A stretch of 64,000 bases of DNA from an uncultured Pseudomonadales bacterium. GTDB taxonomy: Bacteria; Patescibacteriota; Microgenomatia; UBA1400; PJMF01. Under the pieces are notes generated by a model that saw only the letters and a list, made by a program, of their open reading frames with translations, was not told the origin of the DNA and searched no databases. Where the stretch lies: NCBI GenBank assembly GCA_964607285.1, contig CAZSJW010000005.1, forward strand, positions 9,349 to 73,348, written 5' to 3'. The position numbers were made by a program, and so were the translations under genes. This document shows, one piece after another, positions 27,962 to 37,054 of the stretch (positions are counted from its first letter, which is position 1; every line of letters begins with the position of its first letter).

Positions 27962-28645
27962 ATGCGCATCCTGGTTGTCGAAGACGAACATCGCATCGCG
28001 GCCGCACTCAAAAAAGGTTTTGAACTTGAACAGTTCGCAGTCGATGTAGCTCACACTGGTGCTGAAGGCTATGATTTAGCAACTTCGGAAAATTATGATG
28101 CTATATTGCTAGACCTGATGCTTCCAGAAATGGATGGCGTCACCATTTGCAAAAAACTGAGAGAAAAACGCATTCATACTCCTATACTCATTTTAACAGC
28201 TAGAGGACAGCTGGAAGACAAAATCTTAGGTTTAAACACTGGTGCTGACGATTACGTAACTAAACCATTTTCATTTGAAGAGTTACTTGCCCGAGTACGA
28301 GCACTGCTACGAAGACCACCGCAAACCCAAACTACTGTACTTAGCTTAGCAGATTTAGTCCTAAATCCTCAAGATTTTACGGTAAGCAGAGGTGACACAG
28401 CTATTAGCTTGTCCAGTAAGGAATTTGCTTTACTTGAATACCTGCTACGGCACAAAAACACTATACTCAGCAAGCAGCAACTCATAGACCATGTTTGGGA
28501 CTACGATGCTGATATTTTGCCAAATACTGTAGAGGTCTATATCAAAAATTTACGTACCAAGATTGATGCGCCGTTCCCAAATTCACCTTCACTACTACAG
28601 ACAGTACGTGGTTTTGGCTACAAGTTAGCGAAGGAGAAAGTCTAG
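27962..28645 (+). CDS. OmpR-family two-component response regulator
   Basis: Receiver domain (MRILVVEDE...LDLMLPEMDG...KPF) plus a C-terminal winged-helix trans_reg_C domain. Confidence 0.9.
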   Translation: MRILVVEDEHRIAAALKKGFELEQFAVDVAHTGAEGYDLATSENYDAILLDLMLPEMDGVTICKKLREKRIHTPILILTARGQLEDKILGLNTGADDYVTKPFSFEELLARVRALLRRPPQTQTTVLSLADLVLNPQDFTVSRGDTAISLSSKEFALLEYLLRHKNTILSKQQLIDHVWDYDADILPNTVEVYIKNLRTKIDAPFPNSPSLLQTVRGFGYKLAKEKV

Positions 28646-28651
28646 GAACCT

Positions 28652-29707
28652 ATGTTTCGCTCAGCTCGATTTCAACTAATGATCTGGTATGCATTCACTA
28701 TCATGATGGTAAGCGTGCTGTTTAGCCTGATCATTTACCGTGGAGCATCACAAGAAATTGACCGCTTCTCACAGTCTCAAAGAACTCGTATCCAACGCCA
28801 GCTACGGGAAAGCGAGCTACTACCTGCAGAAATTCGCAAAAATATTGTAATCCCTGTTCCGCTACTGGCTGACCCAGATTTAGCTGAAGAGACGAAAGTG
28901 CGTTTCGCTGTGCTGCTGATAATTTTAAACAGCAGCATTGTTTTTTTGGCAACCATATTTGGGTATTTGTTGGCAGGGAAAACGTTGGGTCCAATCCAAA
29001 CCATGATGTCAGAACAGCATAGATTTATTTCAGACGCCTCGCATGAGCTACGCACGCCACTCACTGCACTCAAAGCCTCACTAGAAGTAGGATTACGAGA
29101 TGCCAAGCTAAGTGCATCTGAGGCAAGAACACTGTTGGAAGAAAGTCTAACAGACGTACACAAATTACAAAAACTTTCCGATAATCTTCTACACTTAGCT
29201 CAGTACCGAAAACCCACTACTATAGAACAGTTTAGCGCAGTTTCAATTGAATCACTCATCAAGCAGGCTGTTAAAGCAGTTTCAGGGTTAGCCAAGAAAA
29301 AACATATTTCTATTGAACGCATGGTCGACCCAGGCACAATCTGGGGACAAGCTGAGAGTTTGCATGAACTGCTAGTTATTATTTTAGACAATGCTATCAA
29401 GTACAGTCCCGCCGAAACGAAGATAACTTGCTCTACCAAATCAAGCCGCAGCAAACTTATAATTACCATTTCAGACCAAGGTGAAGGGATTGCCCAGGTA
29501 GACCTTCCGCATGTCTTTGATAGATTCTATCGTGCTGATGCTGCTCGTCAGCATGATACAGCTGATGGGTACGGACTGGGTTTAGCCATCGCGAAAGAAA
29601 TTGTGAGCAGACATGGCGGTACAATTACAGCTGAAAGCAACCTTGGTACAGGAACTAGTATTCGCATTACACTGCCTGGTTATAAACTAGTAAAGTCACA
29701 TGCCTAG
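28652..29707 (+). CDS. two-component sensor histidine kinase
   Basis: Two N-terminal TM helices, the HisKA H-box SHELRTPLTALK, and HATPase N/G boxes (DNAIKYSP, GEGI, GLGLAIAKEIV). Confidence 0.9.
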   Translation: MFRSARFQLMIWYAFTIMMVSVLFSLIIYRGASQEIDRFSQSQRTRIQRQLRESELLPAEIRKNIVIPVPLLADPDLAEETKVRFAVLLIILNSSIVFLATIFGYLLAGKTLGPIQTMMSEQHRFISDASHELRTPLTALKASLEVGLRDAKLSASEARTLLEESLTDVHKLQKLSDNLLHLAQYRKPTTIEQFSAVSIESLIKQAVKAVSGLAKKKHISIERMVDPGTIWGQAESLHELLVIILDNAIKYSPAETKITCSTKSSRSKLIITISDQGEGIAQVDLPHVFDRFYRADAARQHDTADGYGLGLAIAKEIVSRHGGTITAESNLGTGTSIRITLPGYKLVKSHA

Positions 29708-29800: not shown

Positions 29801-30304
29801 ATGAACAGACACCTCATCATACCAGTACTCGCAGTTACAATCGCAGGAGCCACCGCTTTCGCGGCGAGCCAAGCATCCGCCCAAACAGCGGATGACACGC
29901 CAACTCGTTTGGTACAGCGAATCGCGCAACGCTTTAACCTCAGTGAATCTGATGTTCAAGTAGTGTTCAATGAAGCTCGGGCCGATCATAGAATCGAGAT
30001 GCAAGCTCGATTCGAAGAACGACTCAACGCTGCGGTAACTAATGGGAGTATTACACAAGAACAAAAACAAGCCATCATCACCAAACACACGGAACTCATG
30101 GCTGAACACGAAGCTGAGTATGAAGCTTTGAGGGATATGACCCCAGAGGAACGCAGGGCGCACCATGCATCTGAGCGCGCTGAGCTTGAAGCCTGGGCTG
30201 AGTCACAAAATATAGACCTTCAATTCTTTATGCCAATGGGCAGAAAAGGTGGCAACCATATGCGAGGCGCCTACGGCGCACCTGCTGAATTTAATAAGCA
30301 GTAA
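29801..30304 (+). CDS. secreted/periplasmic helical protein, possibly CpxP/Spy-like (LTXXQ-type)
   Basis: A signal peptide (MNRHLIIPVLAVTIAGATAFAASQASA) is followed by a helical, charged body with two xTxxQ/E motifs (ITQEQKQAI, MTPEERRAH) reminiscent of the CpxP/Spy LTXXQ repeats. It lies immediately downstream of the kinase and is preceded by the SD-like sequence aaaggatgag. Confidence 0.45.
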   Translation: MNRHLIIPVLAVTIAGATAFAASQASAQTADDTPTRLVQRIAQRFNLSESDVQVVFNEARADHRIEMQARFEERLNAAVTNGSITQEQKQAIITKHTELMAEHEAEYEALRDMTPEERRAHHASERAELEAWAESQNIDLQFFMPMGRKGGNHMRGAYGAPAEFNKQ

Positions 30305-30334: not shown

Positions 30335-30353
30335 AAGCTGGACAGACACTAAA

Positions 30354-30383
30354 CCTCCTCATCGTACGTGGGGAGGTTTTTTT
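30354..30383 (+). terminator. intrinsic terminator (8-bp stem CCTCCTCA/TGGGGAGG, 7-nt loop, T7)
   Basis: The stem has one G-U wobble and is followed by ttttttt. It would terminate the TCS/LTXXQ transcript. Confidence 0.6.
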
Positions 30384-30441
30384 ATGAATGACAAAACATT
30401 CGTGCTTGCCAAAACATACTGTATGCGTATATACTCACGTC

Positions 30442-30468
30442 CTAGTGCCAACCACTAGATTTTTTTTT
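30442..30468 (+). terminator. intrinsic terminator-like hairpin (CTAGTG-CCAAC-CACTAG followed by AT then T8)
   Basis: Perfect 6-bp inverted repeat with a 5-nt loop followed by a T-rich run. Confidence 0.5.
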
Positions 30469-30532
30469 GCCAGTTTGACCAAAAAGCTTCTCCAAGACAA
30501 AATCGGAGACGCACAGTCGTTTAATTTCATTC

Positions 30533-30557
30533 CCCGCCAAAAGGCGGGATTTTTTTT
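30533..30557 (+). terminator. intrinsic terminator-like hairpin (CCCGCC-AAAA-GGCGGG followed by A then T8)
   Basis: GC-rich 6-bp stem, tetraloop and a T8 run, 66 nt upstream of the argG start. Confidence 0.6.
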
Positions 30558-30622
30558 GCAATTTTTGATTCACCCTTTTCCACCTGTACAAACCCCTCTC
30601 GGCTCCCAAAGGAAGCCACTGC

Positions 30623-32239
30623 ATGCAAACACTTCCCTACACTAAGGTATCCAACTACGAAGGCCGCAAGGGCGAAGTCAAGAAAGTAGTCCTTTTATAT
30701 TCCGGTGGGCTAGACACGTCAGTCATGCTCAAATGGATACAAGATGAGTACAACGCAGAGGTAGTTGCATTGACTATAGATATCGGCCAGCAAGCCGATG
30801 ACTTGGAAGCAATTCGCCAAAAAGCCATCAAGCTGGGTGCAGTCAAAGCAATGGTCATAGACGCTAAAAACGACTTTGCCTACAACTACATCGCCAAAGG
30901 TATCAAGGCCAACGCAAGTTATCAAGGTCGCTATCACCTGAGCACCCCTCTCGGCCGTCCGCTGCTCGCTAAACTGGCAGTCCAAGTCGCCCGCGAAGAG
31001 AACTGTGACTGTATCGCCCATGGCTGTACGGGTAAAGGCAACGATCAAGTTCGCATTGAGGGTTCTGTGCTGACATTAGCACCAGAGATGAAAATTATTG
31101 CCCCAGTTCGAGAGTGGAGTATGGGACGTGATGAAGAACTGGTATATGCAAAAAAACACAACATCCCCGTCAAACAAACCGTCGACTCGCCCTACTCCTA
31201 CGATGACAATATGTGGGGAGTGACTGGTGAGAGTGGTGAAATTGAGAATCCCACACTCATTCCTCCACTCGAAAAAATCTTGCAAGTTTGTAGCATTGTA
31301 GAAAAAACGCCCAACAAACCTGAGTATGTAAAAATTCAATTCATCAAAGGATTACCTGTTTCGGTCAACGACGAAGCCATGAATTTAACAGATCTGATTT
31401 TGCACCTCAATCTGGTAGGTGCCAAACACGGCGTGGGTGTCACCCATCACATTGAGGATCGCGTAGTCGGCCTCAAAGTCCGCGGTCTCTATGAAGCACC
31501 AGCTGCCGAAATCATCATCAATGCTCACTTCAACCTAGAAAAATACGTTTGTACCCGGGTTGAAAATGAGTTTAAATCAGAAGTGGACACCAAGTGGGCG
31601 TATCTCTGTTACGGCGCACTCTGGTATGAGCCGCTACTTGATGATCTGAATGCTCTGATTGATCATGTCAACGAAAAAGTCAGTGGTTTGGTTACAGTCA
31701 AACTGTTCAAGGGCGTTGCCGAAGTTGTGGCTGTGGAAACTGCCAACACAATTTTTGACGAAAAGCTGGCAACATTCATGAAAAACTCAGCCTTCAATCA
31801 AAACGCTTCACCAGGATTTATCGAAATTTACACTTTGCAAATGCGCATGGCACAGCACAAGGAACGGTTTGCACTCCTCACCATTGGCGAAGAGAAAAAT
31901 AAAAAGGCCTTCCTGCCTGTAGTAGAAGAACTCGTGAAACTTGGGTTCAAGTTTTATGCCACCGAGAACTCACATGCTTTTTACAAGCAGCATGGCATCG
32001 AGTCCGTGCTCCTGCACAAAATGTATGCCAAACAGGCGCCCAAACTTGAGGACGCGATGAAGCAGAATTTGTTTGATTTGGTGATAAACCTGCCATATGC
32101 CAAGCAAACTGACGAGTCTAAAAAAGACGAGGCTACTATTCGAAAATGGGCAGTGGCAAATGAAATTCCACTTATCACCGATTTACAGACAGCGCAAACG
32201 CTGGTTAGTAAGTTGCAGCAGCATATGATTGTGCGGTAA
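30623..32239 (+). CDS. argG: argininosuccinate synthase fused to a C-terminal MGS-like domain
   Basis: ArgG motifs VLLYSGGLDTSV, AHGCTGKGNDQVRIE and PVREWSM. An extra ~120-aa C-terminal domain (LLTIGEEKNKKAFLPVVEELVKLGFKFYATENSHAFYKQHGIESVLLHK...DLVINLPYAKQTD...) resembles the methylglyoxal-synthase-like allosteric domain at the C-terminus of CarB. Total length is 538 aa against ~400-450 for a classical ArgG. Confidence 0.85.
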   Translation: MQTLPYTKVSNYEGRKGEVKKVVLLYSGGLDTSVMLKWIQDEYNAEVVALTIDIGQQADDLEAIRQKAIKLGAVKAMVIDAKNDFAYNYIAKGIKANASYQGRYHLSTPLGRPLLAKLAVQVAREENCDCIAHGCTGKGNDQVRIEGSVLTLAPEMKIIAPVREWSMGRDEELVYAKKHNIPVKQTVDSPYSYDDNMWGVTGESGEIENPTLIPPLEKILQVCSIVEKTPNKPEYVKIQFIKGLPVSVNDEAMNLTDLILHLNLVGAKHGVGVTHHIEDRVVGLKVRGLYEAPAAEIIINAHFNLEKYVCTRVENEFKSEVDTKWAYLCYGALWYEPLLDDLNALIDHVNEKVSGLVTVKLFKGVAEVVAVETANTIFDEKLATFMKNSAFNQNASPGFIEIYTLQMRMAQHKERFALLTIGEEKNKKAFLPVVEELVKLGFKFYATENSHAFYKQHGIESVLLHKMYAKQAPKLEDAMKQNLFDLVINLPYAKQTDESKKDEATIRKWAVANEIPLITDLQTAQTLVSKLQQHMIVR

Positions 32240-32247
32240 GGAACCAT

Positions 32248-33219
32248 ATGCAAAACTGGGATTTGATAACACCTATTCTTGAGAACATCGAAAAAAAGGG
32301 CGGTTGGGTGAACACACACACTCACTTAGATCGAGCCTACACGATCACACCAGAAACACTTAAACATGCCAATGCGCCGCTAAAAGCTAAATGGGACTTG
32401 GTTGATGATTTAAAAAAACGTTCTAGTGTTGACCAAATTTATGATCGTATGGCGTATTCCTTAGAGCGTCAACTAGAGCAAGGGGTAACTGCACTCGGAA
32501 CCTTTATAGATGTCGACGAAGTCATTCAGGATAAAGCCATTCTAGCGGCTGATCGTTTACGGGAAAAGTACAAGGATGTTATTCAACTGAAGTTTTTAAA
32601 CCAAACACTCAAGGGAGTGCTTACCCCTGATGCTCGCGAATGGTTTGATCGTGGTGCAGAGTTTGTAGATATCATAGGTGGATTACCTGGCAAAGACCAA
32701 GGACATGAGGCGGAGCACTTTGATGTATTGCTTGGTACTGCAAAACGAATGGGAAAAATGGTACATGTGCACACAGATCAATTCAACGACCAAACTGAAA
32801 CTGAAACTGAGCTGTTAGCGCTAAAAACAATCGAACATGGTATGGAGGGAAAAACTTGTGTCATACATGGCGTTTCAGTTGCCGCCCACCCAATACAGTA
32901 TCGTCAAAAAGTATATACGTTGCTGAAAAAAGCCAAAGTTCAGTGGATTTGCTGCCCAACTGCCTACATTGATGCTCGTCGCAACGAAACTCTGACAGTG
33001 ACCCACAATTCTATTTCGCCTGTTGATGAGCTAGTGCCTGCTGGCATTAGTGTTGGCATAGGAACCGACAACATTGCAGATATCTATTTACCTTTTGGCA
33101 CAGGGAGTATGCTAGAAGAACTTTTACAATTGATTCGTTGTACTCGCATCTTTGATCCTGAATTGTTAGCAGCAATTGCAACGACAAATGGTAGAAAAAT
33201 TTTGGGAATTTCCGCATGA
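32248..33219 (+). CDS. amidohydrolase-superfamily protein, cytosine-deaminase (CodA)-like
   Basis: Conserved blocks align with CodA: NTHTHLDRAY (HxH metal site, cf. EPHIHLD), VHVHTDQFND (cf. VHCDEIDD), CVIHGVSVAAH (cf. VTASHTTAMH) and GIGTDNIADIYLPFGTGSMLEELL (cf. [23 protein letters not shown]). It lacks the N-terminal beta-sandwich and sits directly upstream of pyrD-pyrE. Confidence 0.55.
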   Translation: MQNWDLITPILENIEKKGGWVNTHTHLDRAYTITPETLKHANAPLKAKWDLVDDLKKRSSVDQIYDRMAYSLERQLEQGVTALGTFIDVDEVIQDKAILAADRLREKYKDVIQLKFLNQTLKGVLTPDAREWFDRGAEFVDIIGGLPGKDQGHEAEHFDVLLGTAKRMGKMVHVHTDQFNDQTETETELLALKTIEHGMEGKTCVIHGVSVAAHPIQYRQKVYTLLKKAKVQWICCPTAYIDARRNETLTVTHNSISPVDELVPAGISVGIGTDNIADIYLPFGTGSMLEELLQLIRCTRIFDPELLAAIATTNGRKILGISA

Positions 33220-34298
33220 ACCGACCCACACCGTTCTACGACCCAAGCAAGTCATACCAAGAAAACTACGATCAAGGTCCCTTTGGATTATTTGCAGAAG
33301 AAGCTTCTCCGTTCAAACGCCAAGGCAAACCCGAACACACGTTTCTTGGACACGCAGTCTTTCTGCCATTCGGTATCCCAGCAGGTCCGCTACTCAATGC
33401 AAAGTTTGTAACTGCAGCGTTCAAACAAGGGTTTGACATCTGTACCTACAAAACTGTTCGTACTCGCCCCCATCCCTGTCACCCCTGGCCGAATGTGTTG
33501 GCGGTGCATCCAGAGGGTAAACTCGTGGCGGATCGCCCTGAGCCACTAATTGCTGATCAAATATACGATGCCCCCGTTTCAATTACTAACTCATTTGGCG
33601 TACCTTCAGCCAACCCCGATATCTGGCAAGCAGACATGCAACTCGCCCTCAAATCTGCTGGCAAAGGTCAAGTGATGATCGGCAGTTTCCAAGCAACAAG
33701 CGATGGTTCGGGGTCTGTCAAACAGTATATCGATGACTTCGTAAATGCAGCCAAGCTCGTTACCGAAACGGGTGCCAAAATCCTGGAAGCAAACTTAAGT
33801 TGCCCCAACGAAGGATCTGCACACTTGCTTTGTTTTGATATCGAGCGAACCACACAAATCGCAGCCAACATCAAAGAAGCAATTGGCAACATTCCATTGA
33901 TCCTGAAAATTGCATACTTTGCCGAAGACAAACAGCTAGAAACCCTCGTCAAAAATCTCGCCCCAATAGTCGATGGATTCGCTGCAATCAACACCATTCC
34001 CGCAGCAATTGTTGATGCTACTGGCGAACAAGCCCTCCCTGGCCAAGGCCGTCTGCGCAGCGGAGTCTGTGGTTCGGCAATTCAGTGGGCAGGCTTGGAA
34101 ATGACCGAGCGACTCGTGGCGATGCGAGAAAATCTCAACTTGCAGTACACTGTAATAGGAGTGGGCGGGGTCACCACAGCTGAGGACTTTACTAGATACC
34201 GAGCAGCTGGAGCAGACGCAGTGCAAAGTGCCACTGGCGCTATGTGGAATCCTGATTTAGCACAAAATATTTGGAAAAAACAGAAAGAATCAGTATGA
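33216..34298 (+). CDS. pyrD: dihydroorotate dehydrogenase-family flavoprotein
   Basis: FGIPAGPLLNAKFV...TYKTVRTRP (substrate/FMN N-terminal block) and EANLSCPN (the NLSCPN active-site loop of DHOD/DHPD). It overlaps the upstream gene by 4 nt. Confidence 0.7.
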   Translation: MNRPTPFYDPSKSYQENYDQGPFGLFAEEASPFKRQGKPEHTFLGHAVFLPFGIPAGPLLNAKFVTAAFKQGFDICTYKTVRTRPHPCHPWPNVLAVHPEGKLVADRPEPLIADQIYDAPVSITNSFGVPSANPDIWQADMQLALKSAGKGQVMIGSFQATSDGSGSVKQYIDDFVNAAKLVTETGAKILEANLSCPNEGSAHLLCFDIERTTQIAANIKEAIGNIPLILKIAYFAEDKQLETLVKNLAPIVDGFAAINTIPAAIVDATGEQALPGQGRLRSGVCGSAIQWAGLEMTERLVAMRENLNLQYTVIGVGGVTTAEDFTRYRAAGADAVQSATGAMWNPDLAQNIWKKQKESV

Positions 34299-34951
34299 AC
34301 ACACAGTCAGTCATTGCCCAAGCACTTGTCGACATCGGTGCAGTCGGATTTGCCGTTGAGTCGCCAATAACTTTCAAATCTGGCATAGTGTCCCCTATTT
34401 ACATTGATAACCGTACATTCCCTGCACATCCCACCGAGTGGAAACTAGTTGTGCAAGGTTTTTCAAAGTTAATCACTGACAAGAAACTCAAGTACGACAT
34501 GATTGCAGGCATTGAAACAGCAGGTATTCCCCACAGTGCAGCTCTTGGATTAACCCTTATGAAGCCTTCAGTGTTTGTGCGAAAAACTGCCAAAGATCAT
34601 GGAACAAAAAAATTGGTTGAAGGTGGTTCGGTTGTAAGCAAAACAGTACTGCTTGTAGAAGATCACGTTTCTACTGGGCTTTCCAGCCTAGCAGGAGTTG
34701 CAGCACTCCGTGACTCTGGCGCAGTAGTTACTGACTGCCTATCTATCACAAGCTTCGAAATGCAAGAGGCCACTGAACAATTTGCTACTGCAAATGTAGA
34801 ACTGCATACATTGACAACAATTACCCATATAGTCCAGGCAGCAGTAACTTCCAAAGTGATTTCCTTATCAGATGCTACAATAATCAAAGAGTGGCTAGCA
34901 GATCCACATGGCTGGTTTGCCAAACGCTCAAAAAAGTCAGGCAATCTATGA
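34295..34951 (+). CDS. pyrE: orotate phosphoribosyltransferase-like type I PRTase
   Basis: PRPP-binding motif VLLVEDHVSTGLSS. ATGA overlap with the pyrD stop (ATG 34295-97, TGA 34296-98). The ORF track begins at an upstream TTG at 34271. Confidence 0.6.
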   Translation: MNTQSVIAQALVDIGAVGFAVESPITFKSGIVSPIYIDNRTFPAHPTEWKLVVQGFSKLITDKKLKYDMIAGIETAGIPHSAALGLTLMKPSVFVRKTAKDHGTKKLVEGGSVVSKTVLLVEDHVSTGLSSLAGVAALRDSGAVVTDCLSITSFEMQEATEQFATANVELHTLTTITHIVQAAVTSKVISLSDATIIKEWLADPHGWFAKRSKKSGNL

Positions 34952-36399
34952 TGCAACCGAACGACGTATATACAGCTGTATACAAAAACAACAATCTGTT
35001 CGGCCTCGAAAAAGCATCTAAAACTGATCTCTTCCATCCCAAACATCGCCGACAGAACTCAATCGCAGTGGTGGGTGGCGCACTAGGCGATGAAGGCAAG
35101 GGACGCCTAACTGACGAGCTTACCGCTCAATTTCTAAAAAAACATAAAAAAGTCATCCACTATCGTGATAACGGTGGATCGAACGCTGGACATACGGTTT
35201 CAGTCGGGAAAACCAAAATTGCGTTACACCAACTGGGATCGGGCATTCTACAACCAGGCTGTGTGGTGATACTCGGGAAAGAAATGGTGTTACACCCCAC
35301 TGATCTTGTTTCTGAGATCGAAGCAGTTGCAGCAGTTTCTCCTAAAAAAAACTTGCCCTCTGAACTACAAATAGATGAACAGGCATTCCTTTGCTTGGAT
35401 GTACATCGTGCATTTGAACAAGTACTTAAACAACACTCAACTGGCAGCTCTGGGGCAACAGGACGAGGCATAGCACCAGCGTATGCTGACGTACTATATC
35501 GGCATCCTCTTCGAGTGAGAGATTTGTTCGCTCGAAACTGGCAAGATCTGCTGCGCACCCATTACGAACTGTACAATCGGCTTGTGCAAGGCTTTGGCCA
35601 GAACCTTGCAGACATTTCAGTCCCACAGTTTATTGGGCAATCAATTGTAGTGGGAACAATAGAGAACCAAATTCAGCGACTGAAAACAGCAAAACTAATA
35701 CTAAAACCATACGTACAGAATGTGCGCATTTCACTCGATCAACTTTGGCGTTCAGACTGCCCCTTTGTCTTCGAGAAAGCACAAGCACTTGGTCTGGATA
35801 AACGATGGGGAGTATACCCAGATGTAACAGCGTCTAATTGTGGATTTGATGGCATTTTCTCTTCTACTGAAGGCGTGGTAGACCATCAAGACATTGCTGT
35901 CAGGGCGGCTGCTATCAAAGCTACTTATACCTCCAGTGTTGGTTCTCGCAAACTGCCCTCAATCATGGACGAAGCACTTGCGCATCGAATTCGCGAGGAC
36001 GCTAATGAATACGGTGCTACAACTAAACGGCCCCGAGATATCGTCCACATCGATATCCCCATGCTTTCCTACCTACTTGAAACTGGACGTGTTGAGTACC
36101 TGCTGCTCACACACCTTGATATTGCTTACCCAGACGTTCCAATACGCGTGTGCACAGAGTATAAAATCGGGACTCTCACGGTTCCATATCGCCCAGATCA
36201 AGCTTATCTGTCGCTAGTTGAACCTGTGTATATTGAAGTGCCTTCTTGGGACGGTGTAGCTGCACAGAACGCAACATCTCCCGCCGAACTTCCCCTGGCT
36301 GCCATACAGTATGTCGCTTTCCTCACCCAGTGTCTGGGAGTACCACCACTGTGGGCAACTACTGGTCCAAAACGTCACCAGACAGTGCGATGGTTTTAA
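34948..36399 (+). CDS. purA: adenylosuccinate synthetase
   Basis: P-loop IAVVGGALGDEGKGRLTDEL, LHQLGSGIL and the GTP/IMP-loop TGRGIAPAYAD. ATGA overlap with the pyrE stop. It has a ~35-aa N-terminal extension before the P-loop. Confidence 0.85.
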   Translation: MMQPNDVYTAVYKNNNLFGLEKASKTDLFHPKHRRQNSIAVVGGALGDEGKGRLTDELTAQFLKKHKKVIHYRDNGGSNAGHTVSVGKTKIALHQLGSGILQPGCVVILGKEMVLHPTDLVSEIEAVAAVSPKKNLPSELQIDEQAFLCLDVHRAFEQVLKQHSTGSSGATGRGIAPAYADVLYRHPLRVRDLFARNWQDLLRTHYELYNRLVQGFGQNLADISVPQFIGQSIVVGTIENQIQRLKTAKLILKPYVQNVRISLDQLWRSDCPFVFEKAQALGLDKRWGVYPDVTASNCGFDGIFSSTEGVVDHQDIAVRAAAIKATYTSSVGSRKLPSIMDEALAHRIREDANEYGATTKRPRDIVHIDIPMLSYLLETGRVEYLLLTHLDIAYPDVPIRVCTEYKIGTLTVPYRPDQAYLSLVEPVYIEVPSWDGVAAQNATSPAELPLAAIQYVAFLTQCLGVPPLWATTGPKRHQTVRWF

Positions 36400-36409
36400 G
36401 AGAAGTTGT

Positions 36410-37054
36410 ATGCAAACTGACACCGTAGAAGAAGTCGACATCCTTATCCCGCCACTTTTTGTAAAAAGTGGCATAGTCAAATCTAGAACAGAGGCATTCA
36501 ATGCAGGTGACTGGATTGGTACGTTTAACCTTTGGATTATTCAGTCACAACCAATTCCAGCAATTTTGTACCAACAGCGCAGTTCAAACTCAACTTGGGA
36601 GCCCAACAAGCTTGACGTTTCAGCAGGTGGGCACTTCACAGCAGGTGAGTCAATTTACGATGGATTACGGGAAGTACGAGAAGAGCTAGGGCGTGACTAT
36701 CAAACTGAGTCGTTGACCAGTGTAGGCAGGAAATTGTATGTTGGTCCAGATGCCAGAGGAAAGGAGAGAAGAAACATTGTAGATATCTTTTTTGTGACGG
36801 ACAACTCACCAATCGAGTCTTTCCTGCTTGAAAAGAATGAAGTGTTTGCCCTCTTCTCTTGCCCAATCGCTCAGCTCATTGCTGTGCATGAAGCCAATAT
36901 GCCATTTACTGCACATGGGTGTACAAACGCTGGAGACACAATTAGTTTAAATGTGACCAAAGATTCTTTTCCCATAAACTGGGATAACTACCACTACAAA
37001 ATTGCTTTACTTGCCAAACGGTACCTAAATGGAGAACTACATCTAGTATACTGA
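36410..37054 (+). CDS. Nudix hydrolase
   Basis: Nudix box SAGGHFTAGESIYDGLREVREELG. The tracked ORF begins at 36311 inside purA. The ATG at 36410 just after the purA stop is the likely start. Confidence 0.7.
   Translation: MQTDTVEEVDILIPPLFVKSGIVKSRTEAFNAGDWIGTFNLWIIQSQPIPAILYQQRSSNSTWEPNKLDVSAGGHFTAGESIYDGLREVREELGRDYQTESLTSVGRKLYVGPDARGKERRNIVDIFFVTDNSPIESFLLEKNEVFALFSCPIAQLIAVHEANMPFTAHGCTNAGDTISLNVTKDSFPINWDNYHYKIALLAKRYLNGELHLVY

Follow-up and report, generated by a model that had tools for sequence, protein, structure and literature searches.

To our knowledge, the three steps that open de novo pyrimidine synthesis, those of carbamoyl-phosphate synthetase (CPS), aspartate transcarbamoylase (ATCase) and dihydroorotase (DHOase), are regarded as universal. 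The accessible part of one report describes, for the CPS-lacking Thermococcales, an arginine-linked pathway that supplies the carbamoyl unit without carbamoyl-phosphate synthetase (PMC13260591). The gene considered here lies on the forward strand of a 64,000-nucleotide stretch of contig CAZSJW010000005.1 (the whole stretch being called the window), and its product, ArgG-MGS, is an argininosuccinate synthase that continues into a methylglyoxal synthase-like (MGS) domain of the kind that forms the allosteric domain of CarB. It is the first cistron of an operon with an amidohydrolase, PyrD and PyrE, to which PyrF is usually added in relatives. Whether ArgG-MGS is the regulated entry enzyme of this pyrimidine operon, and whether it and the amidohydrolase replace CarA, CarB, PyrB and PyrC, are questions to which we would answer yes with an even chance of being right; most likely, in any case, the protein serves pyrimidine rather than arginine synthesis.

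A fused argininosuccinate synthase

The gene is a single open frame of 538 codons (30623..32239) with zero internal stops, and three parts can be told apart in its product:

30623..30682, + strand: N-terminal extension of 20 residues, delimited by family alignments (T. thermophilus ArgG begins at the residue-21 position)
30683..31849, + strand: argininosuccinate synthase core, residues 21-409, with PP-loop ATP-pyrophosphatase and ArgG C-terminal domain (Pfam, NCBIfam, Foldseek)
31865..32224, + strand: MGS-like domain of the CarB allosteric type, residues 415-534 (Pfam, NCBIfam, AlphaFold2, Foldseek)

A preliminary description, made from the sequence, had proposed a complete ArgG core with an in-frame MGS-like extension, of which it quoted what are residues 441-492, GFKFYATENSHAFYKQHGIESVLLHK...DLVINLPYA. 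This is confirmed, and the architecture is taken as real because Pfam, NCBIfam and structure prediction agree. In hidden Markov model searches both of the domains it had named are matched, Arginosuc_synth at residues 21-182 (1.1e-65), followed by Arginosuc_syn_C at 191-409 (1.2e-64), and MGS at 430-519 (1.3e-15, 57.7 bits vs a gathering score of 24.1). The NCBIfam argG equivalog NF001770 gives 498.8 bits (cutoff 334) and TIGR00032 455.7 bits (cutoff 268.2), while residues 397-534 align with the last ~130 positions of CarB models (for TIGR01369, positions 923-1050, 1.3e-14), with a further match to the CarB C-terminal region from NF003671. The two ATP-grasp CPSase_L domains of CarB were not found in ArgG-MGS by Pfam or NCBIfam, and in comparison with the CarB of a close relative that has a canonical operon (locus L070) the similarity is confined to the MGS region.

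For the AlphaFold2 model, which was computed from 59 family members, the mean predicted local distance difference test (pLDDT) score is 77.6, and its region 415-534, at pLDDT ~78-93, is an alternating beta/alpha domain. When the model was searched with Foldseek, ArgG structures ranked first (to 1e-35), followed by CPS1 and E. coli CPS (~1e-10), with the isolated MGS domain of human CPS1 (2yvq) matching at a template modelling (TM) score of 0.74 and a root mean square deviation of 2.3 Å over 119 columns. The fold that had been proposed for the extension is then the fold predicted, and the residues of its phosphate pocket, to which we return below, are kept. Within the N-terminal extension, which canonical ArgG lacks, Y6, K8, E13 and G17 are invariant in the family; this extension might be in contact with MGS or with the active site.

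Could a missed stop codon, a frameshift or the merging of two genes in assembly have created the fusion? The chance of such an artefact is negligible, and no point in its favour was found: the frame is open throughout, the model is that of a continuous folded protein, the architecture is shared by at least 120 clusters derived independently from NCBI, JGI, ENA and Logan assemblies, and all 36 complete ArgG genes beside the amidohydrolase in related loci of species-level genomes carry MGS. Among the matches listed, the three Pfam domains are common to all 120 homologue clusters (69-100 % identity, mostly 536-562 aa), and those with a name are Patescibacteria, Pacebacteria or Woesebacteria. In a library at 50 % identity the family reduces to a handful of representatives (P0129, P0202, P0182, P0127). 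A word-indexed homologue search with the MGS domain alone returned only 3 fragments and was uninformative; the exhaustive search of representatives used in its stead, together with the L070 comparison, gives this domain only 25-38 % identity to any CarB. The fusion is already in databases, annotated merely as argininosuccinate synthase, and in the searchable literature no characterisation of it was found, in agreement with the preliminary description, nor any published description of an ArgG-MGS fusion, of the amidohydrolase family PRK06886 or of such a pathway.

Displacement of the canonical pyrimidine genes

Downstream of ArgG-MGS, on the same strand and with overlaps or gaps of a few bases, are:

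32248..33219, + strand: PRK06886 amidohydrolase (NCBIfam NF005365, 428.9 bits vs cutoff 340)
33216..34298, + strand: PyrD, of a divergent subtype of ~360-380 aa with the class-1 catalytic motif NLSCPN (Pfam DHO_dh, 71.5 bits)
34271..34951, + strand: PyrE, orotate phosphoribosyltransferase (TIGR00336, 110.2 bits vs cutoff 106.8)

The NLSCPN of this PyrD aligns with that of L. lactis DHODB. As the preliminary description had observed of the surroundings, argH, argF and carAB are absent, and this holds for the entire 64 kb window; nor did motif search, phmmer and tblastn find CarB, ATCase or DHOase in it.

To what extent is this arrangement general? Searched with the amidohydrolase, a set of genomes in which each GTDB species has a single representative yielded 64 loci, whose open reading frames were called and labelled by BLAST; the counts given here are for 66 non-redundant amidohydrolase loci with ~10 kb flanks, roughly 0.9 Mb in all, and individual loci are cited by L numbers. 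Two independent genomes keep the order ArgG-MGS, amidohydrolase, dihydroorotate dehydrogenase (DHOD), one of them continuing with PyrE and PyrF. ArgG-MGS is present in 38 of the 66 loci, in 29 together with DHOD and in 22 with PyrE and PyrF too, the PyrE and PyrF passing NCBIfam cutoffs. The same three search methods found no CarB, ATCase or E. coli-type DHOase in the 66 loci. ArgH occurs in 9 of the 66 (Bacteroidia, some Microgenomatia), never alongside ArgG-MGS, i.e., in 0 of its 38 loci.

The close relative already mentioned is the most telling. Its order is HD, Tmk, CarA, CarB(MGS), PyrB, DHOase-DHOD, PyrE, PyrF, PNP, Upp, RecR, HPF, and that of L007, L010 and L046 is Tmk, ArgG-MGS, amidohydrolase, DHOD, PyrE, PyrF, RecR, HPF. 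Between L070 and the ArgG-MGS loci PyrF is 62 %, RecR 73 % and HPF 50 % identical, and the window DHOD shares 64 % identity with the corresponding half of the L070 DHOase-DHOD fusion. Because the flanking and downstream orthologues match in this way, ArgG-MGS and the amidohydrolase are seen to hold the exact CarA-CarB-PyrB-DHOase slot of a close relative. The suggestion in the preliminary description that the fusion puts allosteric control on the penultimate arginine step is not supported by this comparison, with ArgH in none of the 38 loci, a pyrimidine operon in place of an arginine one and that slot occupied; regulation of arginine synthesis is probably the wrong framing.

The DHOD subtype found here is elsewhere fused to canonical DHOase, to PyrE and PyrF, and to MGS with a class-II aminoacyl-tRNA synthetase (aaRS)-like module, and further relatives pair it with canonical DHOase and PyrB; because of this company it is, by sequence, assigned as a genuine PyrD acting on dihydroorotate. 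Fusion proteins of amidohydrolase and DHOD were found in at least 7 clusters by a search with the L043 fusion protein, and because the two are recurrently fused they probably catalyse consecutive steps.

Is ArgG-MGS all the same a conventional ArgG, making arginine from scavenged citrulline with ArgH encoded elsewhere, that has acquired a CarB-type regulatory domain, its neighbour being a non-orthologous dihydroorotase fed by carbamoyl phosphate and ATCase from elsewhere in the genome? Placement in a pyrimidine operon would then reflect a need for aspartate and carbamoyl units that the two pathways have in common. The scores far above the equivalog cutoffs, the retention of citrulline and aspartate ligands, the way in which amidohydrolase-DHOD fusions mirror the canonical DHOase-DHOD ones, the CarA beside the amidohydrolase in L039 and the reported joint presence of argG and argH in some Saccharimonadia are all as it would have them. 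It is considered somewhat unlikely, however, since ArgH, PyrB and CarB are all missing from the ~10 kb around each of the 38 ArgG-MGS loci, the close relative keeps CarA-CarB-PyrB-DHOase in exactly that slot, and the amidohydrolase has a mononuclear site of CodA/AtzC type and no DHOase similarity. It also leaves unexplained the MGS on every ArgG here and the pairing of the amidohydrolase with ArgH, ornithine transcarbamoylase (OTC) and DDAH-like genes.

The partner amidohydrolase

The amidohydrolase (323 aa) belongs to NCBIfam family PRK06886, 'hypothetical protein', and is a TIM barrel of CodA/AtzC type without the N-terminal beta-sandwich. Its best PDB sequence matches are AtzC (1e-20) and cytosine deaminase, and for its model (pLDDT 85) the best Foldseek matches are 5-methylcytosine deaminase, AtzC and CodA (TM 0.78-0.85). 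DHOase is absent from the top 50 Foldseek matches and from the PDB sequence, Pfam and NCBIfam matches, and phmmer with an E. coli PyrC query (an approximate sequence) found no match in the loci; judged by family, from sequence and model, the protein is not a dihydroorotase, an enzyme characterised by a binuclear site with carboxylated Lys or Asp. The mononuclear metal set H24, H26, H175, H207 and D274 is invariant in 66/66 amidohydrolases, and at position 178, that of the catalytic Glu of CodA (the HxxE shuttle), Gln is found in 54 and Glu in 11 of the 66. In the reactions of AtzC, CodA and 5-methylcytosine deaminase, water takes the place of ammonia or an alkylamine at a ring carbon of amidine or guanidine type, with nitrogens on both sides.

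Outside the ArgG-MGS operon the amidohydrolase adjoins ArgH (9 loci), OTC (L060, the single one of the 66 loci in which OTC directly follows it) or a gene resembling DDAH/arginine dihydrolase; the last is present in 14 of the 66 loci overall and in Saccharimonadia it is usually between ArgG-MGS and the amidohydrolase. These neighbours count for a route through citrulline because all of them handle argininosuccinate, citrulline, ornithine or arginine. A two-gene module of PRK06886 and ArgH (TIGR00838, 323 bits), with no other arg genes near and no ArgG-MGS, was seen in the following:

L017, L027, L029, L034, L038, L045: PRK06886-ArgH in metagenome-assembled genomes (MAGs) labelled Bacteroidia/Chitinophagales
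L006, L008: PRK06886-ArgH in Microgenomatia
L021: PRK06886-ArgH

This pairing suggests that the substrate of PRK06886 is argininosuccinate-related in these organisms, which should also have canonical pathways. The DDAH-like protein (265-290 aa) ends in GGGIHC and reaches 206 bits with NF045659 and 178 bits with NF052232, falling short of the cutoff in each case; citrulline might be derived from arginine by this protein. Its genes are placed as follows:

L044, L047, L050, L051, L053, L059, L061, L062, L066: DDAH-like gene between ArgG-MGS and amidohydrolase
L036 (7501-8319), L011, L012, L019: DDAH-like gene

The association with makers and users of argininosuccinate, ArgG or ArgH, would equally suit a metabolite repair function in which the amidohydrolase reopens the cyclic anhydrides to which argininosuccinate converts non-enzymatically, ArgG-MGS being an ordinary arginine enzyme, and pairs of ArgH and amidohydrolase in Bacteroidia, where complete pathways are expected, are in line with it. 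That reading is highly improbable in our estimation, as it does not account for the PyrD fusions, the PyrD-PyrE-PyrF operon or the replacement of CarAB-PyrB-PyrC, and the amidohydrolases that do open rings, DHOase and hydantoinase, are of another active-site class than CodA/AtzC.

The catalytic core and its substrates

The ligands of ATP, aspartate and citrulline, in T. thermophilus numbering, we take from UniProt/HAMAP to be Y84, S89, G114, T116, N120, D121, R124, S173, S182, E258 and Y270. Nine of these eleven (Y84, G114, T116, N120, D121, R124, S173, E258, Y270) are identical in ArgG-MGS and invariant in 118 family members. The other two are changed in the family, S89 to P (L. pneumophila ArgG has a gap there) and S182 to T. 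The PP-loop SGGxDTS is present. At 27 positions a residue invariant in three canonical ArgGs is invariantly different in the ArgG-MGS family, and among the parts affected are loops of the citrulline site, where HISYEGGVLEDP has become GVTGESGEIENP and VDIVENR has become THHIEDR; the family-invariant substitutions there are S89P, S182T, G185S, V187E, D255H, I256H and N259D. These altered loops are low-confidence parts of the model. The backbone of citrulline is presumably bound by E258, Y270, S173 and R124, and citrulline and aspartate are, from the residues kept, the most likely substrate pair.

Would another ureido compound fit the altered loops better? If ArgG-MGS were to adenylate urea or some other small ureido compound and join it to aspartate, the product would be guanidinosuccinate, leading to 2-imino-dihydroorotate, which a CodA-like enzyme could deaminate to dihydroorotate much as isocytosine or cytosine is deaminated. 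The invariant substitutions are indeed concentrated where the amino-acid end of citrulline is bound, on loops that are modelled with low confidence; the nearest structures to the amidohydrolase deaminate exocyclic amines on pyrimidines; and 11 of the 66 amidohydrolases have the CodA-type Glu178. As against this, position 178 is Gln in 54 of the 66, the presumed citrulline-backbone binders E258, Y270, S173 and R124 are invariant, and the DDAH-like, OTC and ArgH neighbours point to citrulline, ornithine and argininosuccinate, so that this substitute chemistry is held to be quite unlikely.

A proposed citrulline route to pyrimidines

Taking citrulline and aspartate, then, as the probable substrates, the following route can be drawn. 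ArgG-MGS would condense them with ATP to argininosuccinate, and in so doing place the carbamoyl carbon of citrulline on the nitrogen of aspartate. The amidohydrolase would then direct a metal-activated water at the guanidino carbon and expel ornithine, as AtzC expels isopropylamine and CodA ammonia. From linear argininosuccinate this would give carbamoyl-aspartate, for which ring closure would still be needed; from the six-membered cyclic anhydride of argininosuccinate it would give dihydroorotate directly, and this would be the direct analogue of the AtzC reaction. The anhydride forms spontaneously, by non-enzymatic cyclisation. PyrD, PyrE and PyrF would finish the synthesis of uridine monophosphate (UMP). 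Citrulline would thus take over from carbamoyl phosphate as carbamoyl donor, and could be supplied from host arginine by the DDAH-like enzyme, as in the Saccharimonadia operon; the MGS domain, taken from the CarB lineage, would put nucleotide control on the new committed step. The canonical genes would also be missing from the remainder of these genomes.

Several considerations weigh against this proposal. The loci comprise ~10 kb flanks, and carAB, pyrB, pyrC and argH may lie elsewhere in the genomes; the case is built from genes and models, from which the chemistry is deduced; and a single amidohydrolase must both release ornithine and deliver the closed ring, if the ring does not close spontaneously or by the action of a further DHOase. 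The family-specific substitutions of the citrulline loops leave the room for another ureido substrate discussed above. PyrF was not found in the window operon, which has PyrD-like and PyrE genes. CarA adjoins the amidohydrolase on one Patescibacteria contig (L039, 1 of the 66 loci). Bacteroidia and Melainabacteria, which presumably have canonical pathways, possess the amidohydrolase without ArgG-MGS, and according to a preprint argG is accompanied by argH in some Saccharimonadia whose pyrimidine modules are 'near-complete'. Lastly, MGS is found also inside a canonical pyr operon (L068, see below) and is not diagnostic of a bypass.

With these set in the balance, the chance that ArgG-MGS marks a new pathway is substantial. 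In the fuller version, pyrimidine synthesis would do without carbamoyl phosphate in many Patescibacteria and in at least one Chlamydiae MAG, with PRK06886 as an 'argininosuccinate ornithine-hydrolase / dihydroorotate-forming' enzyme, MGS on the step that now commits to the pathway and an attenuator leader with U-tracts in control of the operon; the prospects of this version fall a little short of even.

The allosteric domain and its likely effector

The phosphate ligands of the inosine monophosphate (IMP)/UMP site of E. coli CarB we take, from structure 1CE8, to be K954, T974, T977 and K993. In a joint alignment of 64 MGS domains with E. coli CarB and one Patescibacteria CarB, K954 corresponds to K427 (kept in 63/64), T974 to T447 (64/64), T977 to T or S at 450 (63/64) and K993 to K466 (63/64), the set in the window protein being K427, T447, S450 and K466. 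The ribose and base contacts are less kept: N1015 is N in 44 of the 64, and in place of T1017 there is P in 56. The Lys at the K993 position sets the domain apart from the CPS1 domain, which binds N-acetylglutamate. Among 118 sequences, 9 % of columns are invariant in the MGS domain and 61 % in the ArgG N-domain. Because phosphate ligands are kept in a domain that is otherwise so loose, the likely effector is a phosphorylated ligand, most simply a nucleotide, and by analogy the domain most likely serves nucleotide feedback or feed-forward control, of UMP/IMP type, on the entry step. Of the effectors that the preliminary description had entertained, a urea-cycle or a nucleotide metabolite, the pocket ligands and the pyrimidine operon favour the nucleotide and make the urea-cycle metabolite less likely.

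That MGS might be a mark of non-canonical front ends alone was considered, and was dropped in view of L068, where an MGS fusion is inside a canonical carAB-pyrB-pyrC operon. That fusion joins a class-II aaRS-like module (Pfam tRNA-synt_2), MGS and DHO_dh in 807-839 aa proteins encoded at L068 8001-10424 and L069 1185-3608 (P0389), with more of the kind in P0383-P0385, P0390, P0148 and P0131; in L068 its place is purC-purM-pyrB-carA-carB-DHOase-[fusion]-pyrF-pyrE. Related MGS domains are found in other fusions (P0158, P0237, P0227, P0206), among them CarA-GATase-MGS of 427 aa, Amidohydro_1-MGS of 491 aa and a half-size CarB-MGS, though some of these may be gene fragments. Judged by where its sequence occurs, the allosteric module seems to pass from one enzyme of carbamoyl or aspartate metabolism to another.

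The leader of the operon

Upstream of ArgG-MGS are a promoter-like site and hairpins followed by U-tracts:

30406..30435, + strand: promoter-like site TTGCCA-N18-TATACT (consensus scan, 10/12 matches)
30441..30467, + strand: leader hairpin P1 (CCTAGTGCCAACCACTAG) then U9, conserved in sequence, at the 5' end of the presumed transcript
30533..30557, + strand: GC-rich, terminator-like hairpin P3 (CCCGCCAAAAGGCGGG) with U8, a candidate attenuator 66 nt ahead of the start codon

The -35 and -10 elements align with TTGC..TATACT/TACACT in related leaders, though the site is a consensus match only and the region is no richer in such sites than shuffled sequence. The layout is that of promoter-like site, hairpin CTAGTGCC-NNN-CACTAG with U8-9, variable middle hairpin, and GC-rich hairpin with U7-8 right before the first gene. 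A scan of 68 loci showed the P1 motif in 10 of them, always upstream of the first gene of the operon (in L036 this is the DDAH-like gene) and at no other place. The instances of the leader are:

window, 30406-30622: leader
L001, 9861-9963: leader
L004, 2642-2753: leader
L036, 7391-7491: leader
L040, 8223-8323: leader
L041, from 8219: leader
L046, 3740-3852: leader
L049, 7943-8053: leader
L064, 8158-8267: leader
L067, 8135-8245: leader

A hairpin with T-run, equivalent to P3 but of differing sequence, is 25-75 nt upstream of ArgG-MGS in 13 of 34 loci examined, and at least one such element lies within 260 nt of it in 16 of the 34. There was no Rfam match in the leader, and RNAalifold gave almost no covariation, P1 being conserved in sequence and the other hairpins failing to align. 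The leader looks like an attenuator, a candidate one that is specific to this operon and perhaps sensitive to uridine triphosphate, attenuators being usual for pyrimidine operons.

Neighbouring genes and other observations

Beyond PyrE the cluster continues on the same strand:

34891..36399, + strand: PurA-like adenylosuccinate synthetase (Pfam Adenylsucc_synt, 1.2e-82)
36311..37054, + strand: NUDIX hydrolase (Pfam NUDIX, 2.2e-06), last same-strand gene of the cluster, overlapping the PurA 3' end by 89 nt

That pyrimidine and purine genes adjoin ArgG-MGS, as the preliminary description had remarked, is borne out by PyrD, PyrE and PurA directly downstream. The longest PurA frame overlaps PyrE by 61 nt, but since its Pfam match begins at residue 59, translation probably starts near 35065; of the 66 related loci, 12 have PurA. 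Just upstream of the operon, the stretches 27962-29707 and 29801-30304 encode an OmpR-type response regulator and a histidine kinase and then a small secreted protein, whose gene has a separate terminator (30351-30379); all of these are probably outside the operon.

A PyrB-like hit beside the amidohydrolase in L060, at first taken as support for a PyrC analogue, proved from its SMG and HCLP motifs to be OTC. Directly downstream of that amidohydrolase-OTC pair, on a Saccharibacteria contig, is a 433-aa protein of unassigned family (L060 1996-3297). A paralogue of the PyrD subtype, annotated hypothetical, is encoded in the 8.6 Mb chromosome of Kribbella sp. (L071 8001-9224, P0301), where the neighbours are a dCMP deaminase, a thymidylate synthase, a nucleoside deoxyribosyltransferase-like gene and a ureidoglycolate lyase; this may be a modified-nucleoside cluster.

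Patescibacteria-type operons are also borne by contigs of third-party (TPA) assemblies labelled 'uncultured Pseudomonadales' or 'Gammaproteobacteria bacterium', and these taxonomic labels look wrong. ArgG-MGS of one of them, L004, is 93 % identical to that of the window. They are:

L004, L007, L008, L016, L023, L024, L028, L032, L036, L043, L048, L049, L054, L055, L064, L065: loci so labelled

Implications

If the citrulline route is correct, a two-gene bypass in which citrulline donates the carbamoyl group would add a new branch to central metabolism and involve a new enzyme activity, and a function would be assigned to PRK06886, a widespread family of 'hypothetical' amidohydrolases. The scoring of metabolic capacity in Patescibacteria would change: those that pathway modules rate as 'pyrimidine-incomplete' would be prototrophic given arginine or citrulline from a host, and their supply of nucleotides would be tied to the flow of arginine within the symbiosis. 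The route would offer, too, a clean case of an allosteric module moved between unrelated catalytic scaffolds with the pathway logic kept. Even on a conservative reading, a nucleotide-sensing ArgG would be an uncharacterised regulatory architecture.

Comparison with known systems

The arginine-linked carbamoyl supply of the Thermococcales resembles what is proposed here, but that pathway, in the part of the report accessible, still yields carbamoyl phosphate, presumably feeding a canonical ATCase, whereas the proposed route would bypass carbamoyl phosphate (PMC13260591). Type I ArgG (T. thermophilus 1J1Z/1KOR, L. pneumophila 6XNQ, human ASS1 2NZ2) has the 390-residue core, the PP-loop and the ATP and aspartate ligands of ArgG-MGS with most of those for citrulline, and its matches reach 1e-97 in sequence and 1e-35 with Foldseek. 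It is without the conserved 20-residue N-terminal extension and the 125-residue C-terminal MGS, and its canonical genomic partner is ArgH, while those of ArgG-MGS are PyrD, PyrE and PyrF. AtzC, the N-isopropylammelide isopropylaminohydrolase, and CodA share with the amidohydrolase the TIM barrel and the mononuclear set HxH, H, H, D, and the proposed step calls for just their chemistry, the hydrolytic displacement of an amine at a ring carbon between nitrogens. They differ in having the N-terminal beta-sandwich and in acting in triazine and cytosine catabolism, whereas PRK06886 has no beta-sandwich and is linked to ArgG, ArgH and PyrD, with the catalytic Glu of CodA being mostly Gln (54/66).

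The allosteric domain of CarB/CPS1 (1CE8 with IMP; human CPS1 2YVQ, 5DOU) is like that of ArgG-MGS in fold, in its matches to Pfam MGS and the CarB C-terminal models, and in its phosphate ligands, and in CarB too it is C-terminal on the entry enzyme of a pyrimidine operon. The CarB ribose and base contacts N1015 and T1017 are not conserved, however, and what the domain is attached to is quite a contrast, ATP-grasp CPSase domains in CarB and an N-type ATP pyrophosphatase in ArgG-MGS. The canonical pyr operon (carA-carB-pyrB-pyrC-pyrD-pyrE-pyrF, as in L070) shares with the ArgG-MGS loci the PyrD subtype, PyrE, PyrF, the flanking Tmk, RecR and HPF, and MGS on the first enzyme, but where it has CarA, CarB, PyrB and DHOase, they have ArgG-MGS and the amidohydrolase instead.

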